This document shows positions 20,190 to 21,407 of a DNA stretch of 47,812 nucleotides, piece by piece. The position numbers and the translations under genes are program-made. Numbering within the stretch: the first letter of the stretch is position 1; each line of letters starts with the position of its first letter. Source of the stretch: a virus (lineage: Duplodnaviria > Heunggongvirae > Uroviricota > Caudoviricetes). The notes beneath the pieces are model-generated. The model had not been told where the DNA came from. It saw nothing but the letters and a program-made list of their open reading frames with translations, and did no database searches. The stretch covers positions 1 to 47,812 of the IMG/VR virus record IMGVR_UViG_649989947_000010; one strand, written 5' to 3'.

Positions 20190-21407
20190 TTATCCTTTCC
20201 GTTTACGGGCTTCGTTAATTTGTGTCTCAAGAATGCTTCGCGCCTGCGCGGTGGCAGCGGCCTTGTCCATTCCCTGACTCATGAAAAACTTTATGAGGTT
20301 GTTCGCCTGCGTTTGCAGGGCTTTTTTGAGAGCGTCGGCTTCAGCGCGAGCCTGGGCTTCCCTCACCCGCGATGCTTTTAGTTCGGCATTCTTCCTGTTT
20401 GCCGTGGTGCGAGCTTTTTTTAACAACCGGCGAACGTTGTCCGTGGCGCTATCTTTGGCGCGTAGTTTTTTGCCTAATGCATCCTGAGATTTCAGATACA
20501 GCTCATACTCACGCGCAGCTTTAGCCTGATCCGTCGTTGTTGTCCGGTTGCGCGCGAGCGATTTAGCCAGTTCGCCTTTGAAATAGGTTGTTGTCTTCCG
20601 CTTGTCATCGCCGAAGGCCACCTGTTCAGCTGCTTTTTCCAGGGCAATAATGATGGCCTTGTGCCATGTGGGAGACTGAAAACGCGTCATAGCGTGCAAA
20701 ACATGTTTGCAAGCCACGCCAGTCAGATCAGGGTTGCGGATTTTGGGGAATGCATACTCTTTTGGCGGCGCGACAGCATAGTTACCAGCCGTGGCCATAT
20801 AACGATACCAGTATTGATGGCGTCCACAATCACAGTCGAAAGATACCCGGCCCTTGCAGAGATCGGCAGCGATTCGGGCTTTTTTCGCACCGTCTTCAGC
20901 AATATCCTCAACGGCTTTATCCCATTCCTCAAATCGAATTCTGACACGGTGATGCTGGTGGACCGACTCATCCGAGGCATTAACAGATATCAATGCAAGG
21001 TTGTGTTTTAGCCCGAGGAATGTCGCGGCTTTGATCCCTGTGCCATCAGAAACTTTGTTGTTAGCGCGTTTTATATCAATGCTGGTGGACTGCGCCACCA
21101 GCTGAGCATAGGTAATGCCGGGTACGGTGCTCTTGAATTTGGTTTTATGAGCCTGCCTTGAGGTGTTGAAACTGCGTATATCTTCGGGCGTAAAGTAGGT
21201 GCCATCTTTCTTTTTCCCAAGGCTGAGGAATGCCTCAAGTTCGCGGTTACGCATCCCCATAATCCTTGGGGTGAGTGTACGCCGCGCGTTTCGCCGATTC
21301 TGACGCTGCTGTTTACGGATAAGATCGAAGACCTTGTTAAAGTCTTTTGCACTTAATCCATCAGTCTGATAGCGACCAAGGTTGTCGCGAGCATATTCAG
21401 TTGGCAT
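20190..21407 (-). CDS. SWIM zinc-finger protein with basic coiled-coil C-terminus
   Basis: CDCGRHQYW...CKHVLHA fits CxC-x(n)-CxH SWIM signature; C-terminal Lys/Arg/Ala-rich region. Confidence 0.45.
   Translation of the reverse strand: MPTEYARDNLGRYQTDGLSAKDFNKVFDLIRKQQRQNRRNARRTLTPRIMGMRNRELEAFLSLGKKKDGTYFTPEDIRSFNTSRQAHKTKFKSTVPGITYAQLVAQSTSIDIKRANNKVSDGTGIKAATFLGLKHNLALISVNASDESVHQHHRVRIRFEEWDKAVEDIAEDGAKKARIAADLCKGRVSFDCDCGRHQYWYRYMATAGNYAVAPPKEYAFPKIRNPDLTGVACKHVLHAMTRFQSPTWHKAIIIALEKAAEQVAFGDDKRKTTTYFKGELAKSLARNRTTTTDQAKAAREYELYLKSQDALGKKLRAKDSATDNVRRLLKKARTTANRKNAELKASRVREAQARAEADALKKALQTQANNLIKFFMSQGMDKAAATAQARSILETQINEARKRKG

Follow-up and report, generated by a model that had tools for sequence, protein, structure and literature searches.

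The stretch of DNA considered here (referred to as the window; 47,812 nucleotides, IMG/VR record IMGVR_UViG_649989947_000010) comes from a P1-type phage-plasmid, with a DNA identity to NC_005856 of 98.6% over the region, and the subject of this account is its gene 25, which encodes the protein gp25. It is tentatively suggested that gp25 serves as an accessory factor of head-to-tail joining, i.e. of neck assembly, rather than as an ordered structural component present in stoichiometric amounts in the tail. The gene is known and its Cys/His motif is real; the assignment of this motif to the SWIM type is reasonable but atypical, and the family-wide association with the neck is new. The protein possesses a core of about 200 residues, whose C-terminal part is a Cys2-Cys-His SWIM-type knuckle with an insert. 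In the P1 supergroup this core is flanked by basic helical extensions at both ends, and in unrelated large myophages it stands alone; in both settings the gene is located in the connector/terminator block, in the P1 supergroup directly upstream of gene 7. The gp25 core represents a previously undescribed protein family in the head-to-tail joining module of many contractile-tailed phages. P1 has a long history as a model phage and is routinely used for transduction, and an orphan 'tail stability' gene now leads to a testable hypothesis on head-tail joining and genome retention.

The open reading frame is 99.5% identical at the protein level to P1 gp25 (YP_006549, annotated 'tail stability'), a comparison with P1 having been proposed in a first-pass annotation made from the sequence letters, and it matches the PHROG family profiles phrog_1722 (expectation value, E, of 1.3e-227, residues 1-405) and phrog_4315 (E 7e-47). 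The P1 annotation lists 26-25-7-24-6-5 as a late operon governed by promoter LP26, with gene 25 in second position, and the early placement of gene 25 inside a structural operon was correct. The Lpa -22 box of LP26 is intact, with an exact match at 21834-21842 of the window, and gene 7 starts 3 nucleotides past the stop codon of gene 25.

Only four cysteines are present in gp25 (C184, C192, C194, and C233), three of which, together with H235, make up the arrangement C192-x-C194-x38-C233-x-H235 within the string FDCDCGRHQYWYRY...GVACKHVLHA. This C-x-C-x38-C-x-H pattern arose by chance in 3 of 20000 shuffles of gp25. Residues C192, C194, C233, and H235 are invariant in 23/23 homologues with 40-83% identity and in 38/38 homologues with 22-36% identity, and their equivalents are also invariant in the short forms of other phages described below. 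Besides these ligands, only G97, E217, P221, N225, G230, and K234 are invariant in the 38 distant homologues. The family signature reads CxCGRHQYWYRY...E..FPKIRNP.L.G..CKH, with a conserved insert of 26-30 residues between the two knuckle halves; its conserved positions are E217, P221, K222, N225, P226, and G230 (E..FPKIRNP.L.G), and a PAKITNP box is the equivalent in the short forms.

Whether this motif is a SWIM zinc finger, as first proposed, is a matter of degree. The profile search suggested at the time gave no Pfam family for gp25 at E<=1 and no SWIM match (PF04434) in the 23 close homologues at E<=10, and among gp25, the 23 close, and the 38 distant relatives no family rose above threshold. 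SWIM was nevertheless the sole family to recur, with weak matches in 9 of the 38 distant relatives (best E 0.01), one of which, in relative P0259, extends from CxC to CxH. The best scores in relatives, 15.8 and 14.2 bits, and those of every member tested stay below the PF04434 gathering score of 19.6 bits; gp25 from which the insert had been deleted by hand scores 14.8 bits. One family member is named 'SWIM-type domain-containing protein' in UniRef, and the short forms read CTCPDF.YR...CKH, near the canonical bacterial SWIM core. In the predicted models (secondary structure by DSSP), strand 188-192 ends at CxC and a helix begins at residue 234, at CxH. The SWIM domain, reportedly described by Makarova and colleagues in 2002, is said to have a beta-beta-alpha setting with CxC at the end of a hairpin or strand and CxH at the start of a helix. 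The likeness to SWIM (PF04434, PROSITE PS50966) comprises the C-x-C...C-x-H ligands and, as far as the predicted models go, probably a CxC that closes a strand and a CxH that opens a helix. There are also differences: the canonical spacer is a short turn, whereas the spacer of gp25 comprises 38 residues with a conserved insert, its core is part of a larger domain that has no fold relative in the PDB, and its gene resides in a virion morphogenesis operon. No SWIM-containing structure was retrieved by Foldseek with the full-length or core models. As no match reaches the Pfam threshold and the 38-residue spacer is conserved, the motif is, judged by its sequence, a SWIM-like zinc knuckle of divergent type that carries a conserved insert, and not a canonical member; the knuckle probably binds zinc. 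What has survived of the initial proposal is the signature itself, with its invariance and, in the predicted models, apparently the expected secondary-structure setting, and what has not is a SWIM match above threshold; the outcome named at the time as refuting it, namely no SWIM similarity together with unambiguous kinship to a structural protein of the tail or baseplate, did not occur.

The AlphaFold model of the core (residues 93-292, built from 45 sequences) has a predicted local distance difference test score of 89.8 and a predicted template modelling score of 0.87, and comprises a three-stranded sheet, two helices, a fourth strand, the zinc knuckle, and then further helices. Foldseek searches of the PDB with the full-length and the confident core models returned nothing below E=1, and faint matches to kinases and proteasome structures were dismissed as noise; in BFVD only uncharacterised phage proteins of 150-256 residues were found. 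Sequence searches of the PDB with gp25 alone and with two profiles gave no match, and no gp25 chain is present there. The N-terminal extension is a feature of the long form of the P1 supergroup, the short forms being devoid of it. The isoelectric point (pI) of the whole protein is 10.11, and residues 261-405 contain 34 Lys and Arg versus 17 Asp and Glu, with 18% Ala, in agreement with the Lys/Arg/Ala-rich C-terminus recorded at the outset. In the AlphaFold model this region forms a single helix at residues 294-377 and a second one at 382-404. Within residues 294-377 the hydrophobic occupancy of heptad positions a and d does not exceed that of shuffles (p ~0.3-0.4), and coiled-coil Pfam families gave only weak, scattered matches. 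The 'basic coiled-coil tail' of the first-pass annotation can thus be retained as a basic helical tail; for want of heptad periodicity a coiled coil is not shown.

A family profile search yielded 629 representative clusters at 50% identity, and the knuckle motif does not vary across them; about 120 IMG/VR loci were collected, their genes called and clustered, and 33 distinct loci counted, with a median pairwise identity of 36%. The gene 7 family lies directly downstream (+1) of the gene 25 homologue in 31/33 loci, the gene 24 family within +6 genes in 30/33, and the gene 26 family directly upstream (-1) in 22/33. The usual order is pacB - x - 26 - 25 - 7 - 24 - 6 - 5 - 23 - x - 22 - 21 - pmgG - bplB. 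Relatives also share a conserved gene ahead of gene 26 (family 6), for which tblastn retrieved nothing from isolated phages. The ABMM1/Rb1 clade departs from the usual order: genes 24-6-5 have relocated, and 26-25 sit upstream of an acidic protein and the capsid gene. The stopper position is held there by an acidic protein of 167-182 residues (phrog_4597; L082:5699-6247 and L083:7893-8396). The homologue of Xanthomonas phage Rb1 (PQ569993; L083:6809-7888) is labelled 'transcriptional regulator MvaT', and a paper repeats the label; it is unsupported, the protein matching phrog_4315 and phrog_1722 and carrying CxC...CKH.

A relaxed tblastn search with the core led to proteins of 181-184 residues in Bacillus phages SP-15 and vB_BceM-HSE3 and in Listeria phage LIS04, and such short forms were found in IMG/VR contigs as well. 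Their matches to the gp25 PHROGs range from E 7.7e-6 to 2e-13, and alignment of the short-form with the long-form profile (hhalign) gave a probability of 99.1% (E 1.5e-18, 117 columns). At 12-13 loci the genes follow the order capsid, x, gp13-like neck protein, a very acidic protein, the SWIM-like gene, x, Neck1/tail-completion protein, gp15-like terminator, sheath, and tube, and the gp15-like terminators of these loci are homologous to P1 gp24 (hhalign 93.6%). Residence in the neck module in both lineages marks the core as an old inhabitant of the head-tail joining module, shared by two very different lineages of myophages.

Two longer architectures were also encountered. In contigs of more than 200 kb (L279-L308, e.g. 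L297:6746-8176) the core is N-terminal in proteins of 326-641 residues and is followed by a Pro/Ala/Ser-rich linker and a poly-acidic C-terminal tail; the genes adjoin an SbcC-like gene, the neighbouring genes having no Pfam or PHROG match. In L258-L260 (e.g. L259:5186-7750) the core occupies the C-terminus of proteins of 847-951 residues, after a long region of another kind in which an H-Y-E-like pattern, seen by eye, is reminiscent of ADP-ribosyltransferases; these genes sit between a GH25-LysM endolysin and fibre-like genes. Searches of Pfam, PHROG, and the PDB with the extra regions and the neighbours of these fused relatives gave nothing usable.

The product of gene 7, gp7, which had been singled out early as an extremely acidic neighbour, indeed has a pI of 4.13, with 25 Asp and Glu versus one Lys or Arg among the N-terminal 80 residues. 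In the cryo-electron microscopy structure of P1 (PMC12810830) this protein forms the hexameric stopper of the connector, deposited as chain B of PDB 9UMS. The same study models gp24 as terminator, gp26 as baseplate plug, gp6 as hub, and gp5 as spike, and gp25 is mentioned neither there nor in the earlier tail work (PMC10304247) nor in a baseplate preprint (bioRxiv 2025.07.21.665459); gp25 is the sole product of the 26-25-7-24-6-5 operon that the virion structures leave unplaced. In P1 virion proteomics it was detected with 2 peptides (8.4% coverage), and HHpred assigned it no role (PMC9024508). An accessory neck factor that works together with stopper and terminator is the reading that best accommodates the tight linkage to the stopper gene, the occurrence in neck modules of other phages, the traces detected in virions, and the absence from symmetrised maps. 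The opposite charge of the two neighbours is kept across families (gp25 pI 9.6-10.4, gp7 pI 4.05-4.7). The acidic/basic pair noted at first sight was hence well observed, yet its acidic member is a stopper and not of the chaperone type; the accompanying proposal of an injected internal protein or assembly chaperone overlaps with the neck-factor reading and with that of a protein at the DNA end, to which we return below.

It can be envisaged that the zinc-bound knuckle holds rigid an invariant surface of basic and aromatic residues (R196, H197, Y199, W200, Y201, R202, Y203, K222, R224, and N225), and that this surface contacts a connector partner common to all these phages, either the stopper and terminator rings or the DNA end in the channel. 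The invariance of this face suggests a partner that does not vary from phage to phage, such as DNA or a conserved ring surface. In the long form, the basic arms might pair electrostatically with the acidic stopper gp7. The protein would act during completion of the filled heads and their joining to tails, and would leave afterwards or stay in a few asymmetric copies. Host Hfq in the gp13/gp14 neck of T4 (PMC12929587) sets a precedent for a non-canonical accessory protein in the neck of a myophage. Like the proposed gp25, Hfq is a small nucleic-acid-binding accessory that stabilises the neck from outside the canonical connector set. It acts as the second gate of that neck, but is host-encoded and hexameric with an Sm fold, whereas a ring of gp25 or a place for it in the channel is at most hypothetical.

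Several observations weigh against placing gp25 at the neck. Both this location and zinc binding are presumptive. Gene 26 adjoins gene 25, and genes 6 and 5 belong to the same operon, so that synteny by itself leaves room for a role in the baseplate. The short forms are not uniformly basic (pI 4.05-9.6), which limits the idea of electrostatic pairing to the long form, and sequence similarity to gp7 was detectable neither in the gene that follows the short forms nor in the phrog_4597 protein that follows gene 25 in the ABMM1 clade. The classical gene 25 phenotype is merely 'tail stability', and derives from amber mutants that may have had polar effects on genes 7 and 24. When interference with clustered regularly interspaced short palindromic repeats (CRISPRi) was used to set roadblocks in genes 25 and 26, plating fell only about tenfold and no polarity was exerted on the essential genes 7-24-6-5 further downstream, and the authors speak of a double contradiction between these and the amber data (PMC10695390). 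With a tenfold effect, the essentiality of gene 25 is not cleanly established. A second Lpa -22 box between position 21842 and gene 7 would have explained the lack of polarity, but none is present in the window. The neck hypothesis has a bearing on this contradictory essentiality of genes 25 and 26, and it may also explain how a connector with a channel of 40 Å retains the DNA.

The width of this channel also motivates another reading, in which gp25, in a small number of copies, occupies the connector channel at the end of the packaged DNA as a genome gate or pilot protein, retaining the DNA until the tail docks and leaving first upon infection, in analogy to T4 gp2 and Mu N. The P1 connector-terminator channel is about 40 Å across, wider than in Mu, E217, Pam3, and phiTE (PMC12810830); the stopper ring does not itself close a channel of this width, which offers room, and perhaps a need, for an extra plug. 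The published account, however, relates the wide channel to the passage of Dar proteins. Strong basicity, a zinc knuckle, a basic-aromatic patch that does not vary, trace amounts in virions, and absence from symmetrised maps would fit the part, the fusion of the core to large extra regions in relatives is typical of packaged or ejected proteins, and the T4 cluster 3-2 (DNA end protector)-4 (head closure), followed by 53-5, resembles P1 26-25-7-24...5 in content. T4 gp2 and Mu N are likewise basic and present in low copy number; their genes lie among those for head completion or the tail, and both proteins are needed for morphogenesis. On the other hand, hhalign to T4 gp2 yields 0.06-0.1%, there is no Pfam match to the Mu N family, T4 gp2 is devoid of cysteines, binding of gp25 to DNA or a DNA end is putative, and the fused regions of the relatives have no identifying match. 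On balance a gate or pilot function is unlikely, though it is the main rival of the neck-factor reading. The more elaborate version, in which gp25 as plug and pilot binds the last-packaged DNA end in the channel, enters the cell with the DNA, and stays on the ends, is improbable. A P1 protein that protects and circularises DNA in abortive transductants has long been sought, and gp25 would be this protector of transduced DNA if that version were true.

A baseplate-hub assembly chaperone, i.e. a Cys-rich catalytic factor for gp26, gp6, and gp5 that is not retained in the virion, is a rather doubtful alternative, less likely than the gate or pilot function. T4 gp26 (CxC...CxxC) and gp51, the Cys-rich hub assembly factors encoded beside gp27, would be its models, gene 25 shares one operon with plug, hub, and spike, and the amber tail phenotype and the absence from virion maps would fit. 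The T4 factors (PF12322) are, like gp25, Cys-rich, probably zinc-binding morphogenesis factors, non-structural or barely structural, and their location in the virion was never shown. T4 gp26 is moreover the best T4 match of the gp25 profile, the alignment spanning CxCG, WY, and [FY]PKI, whereas T4 gp2, gp3, gp4, gp28, gp51, and gp53 were tried and did not match. The hhalign probabilities are low (13.7% with the single sequence, 4.7% with a 22-sequence profile, 2.3% with another alignment; 2-14% for gp26/gp51 overall), and neither gp25 nor its 23 close homologues match PF12322. One should recall that the accepted relation of P1 gp26 to T4 gp53 reaches only 14% in hhalign with equally shallow inputs, so that a very distant relation of gp25 to T4 gp26 is still conceivable. 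The T4 proteins, however, have CxxC as second ligand pair, are about half the size of gp25, and are encoded beside hub genes, whereas gp25 is linked to neck genes: gene 25 is more closely linked with the stopper gene than with gene 26, the short forms reside in neck modules several genes from the hub gene, and the ABMM1 clade kept 26-25 upstream of the capsid gene when 24-6-5 moved away. As a side observation on T4 genes 26 and 51 (L246:2803-4229), C82-x-C84 ... C187-x2-C190 of gp26 is invariant in 22 homologues, gp51 has CxxC ... CC, and both proteins look zinc-binding; their N-terminal FT..[DE]Y..[FL] resembles FT..D...F of gp25 (residues 72-80), a similarity that is not significant.

That gp25 is an ordinary stoichiometric structural tail protein, which has so far escaped resolution, is very unlikely. 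This is what the GenBank, PHROG, and NCBI names imply, and the protein was detected in purified virions; yet in two independent studies at near-atomic resolution, which covered tail, baseplate, and connector of P1, the density is explained without gp25, and 2 peptides are few for a protein of 46 kDa. The names in the databases are all said to trace to a single phenotype seen by electron microscopy in 1983, of which the description is second-hand. The present analysis corrects annotations that have been propagated, namely 'tail protein', 'baseplate or tail stability protein', and, for phage Rb1, 'transcriptional regulator MvaT'. A capsid scaffold or other head-assembly protein, an idea prompted by the ABMM1/Rb1 contexts, where the homologue precedes the major capsid gene by two to three genes, and favoured also by the long helical tail of gp25 and by the fact that no scaffold is known for P1, is hardly credible and was rejected after sampling more than 40 loci: P1 gp23 has its own cleaved N-terminal domain of 120 residues, the short forms lie downstream of capsid and neck genes, and the ancestral order 26-25-7-24-6-5-23 makes the proximity to the capsid gene a by-product.

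Positions in the window of gene 25, its parts, and its operon
Feature	Position	Strand	Basis or remarks
Gene 25 coding sequence	20190..21407	minus	405 residues plus stop, ATG start; open reading frame list
N-terminal extension, residues 1-92	21132..21407	minus	basic, helix 20-40, pI 11 for residues 1-60
Conserved core domain, residues 93-292	20532..21131	minus	AlphaFold core model; homology to stand-alone 180-residue proteins
SWIM-like motif C192-x-C194 ... C233-K234-H235	20703..20834	minus	alignments, shuffles, sub-threshold Pfam SWIM matches in relatives
Conserved insert between knuckle halves, residues 204-230	20718..20798	minus	invariant or near-invariant columns
C-terminal Ala/Lys/Arg-rich helical tail, residues 293-405	20193..20531	minus	AlphaFold helices, composition
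Late promoter LP26	21824..21842	minus	Lpa -22 box AAATGACTA, -10 TAGAAT; P1 annotation
Gene 26, baseplate plug (T4 gp53-like), first gene of the operon	21417..21794	minus	P1 annotation, PHROG; PMC12810830
Gene 7, acidic stopper of the head-tail connector	19458..20186	minus	pI 4.13; PDB 9UMS_B; PMC12810830
Gene 24, tail terminator	18686..19489	minus	PMC10304247; hhalign 93.6% to T4-gp15-like terminators
Gene 6, hub	17668-18684	minus	distal operon gene; open reading frame list, P1 annotation, Pfam/PHROG
Gene 5, spike	17043-17675	minus	distal operon gene; open reading frame list, P1 annotation, Pfam/PHROG

Two minor observations concern the window itself. The longest open reading frame of gene 24 opens at a TTG located 18 nucleotides upstream of the P1-annotated start (261 residues) and overlaps the end of gene 7 by 32 nucleotides. 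Between pmgM and pmgO, where P1 carries the C1 operator Oppp and pmgN, a complete IS10 with both terminal repeats (22918-24246) is followed head-to-tail by a second copy (24247-25396) that is devoid of the first ~177 bp. The pair (22918-25396) has a period of 1150 bp with 10 mismatches between the copies, which may reflect a genuine tandem or an assembly artefact, and gives rise to two overlapping transposase open reading frames at 23025-24233 and 24208-25383.

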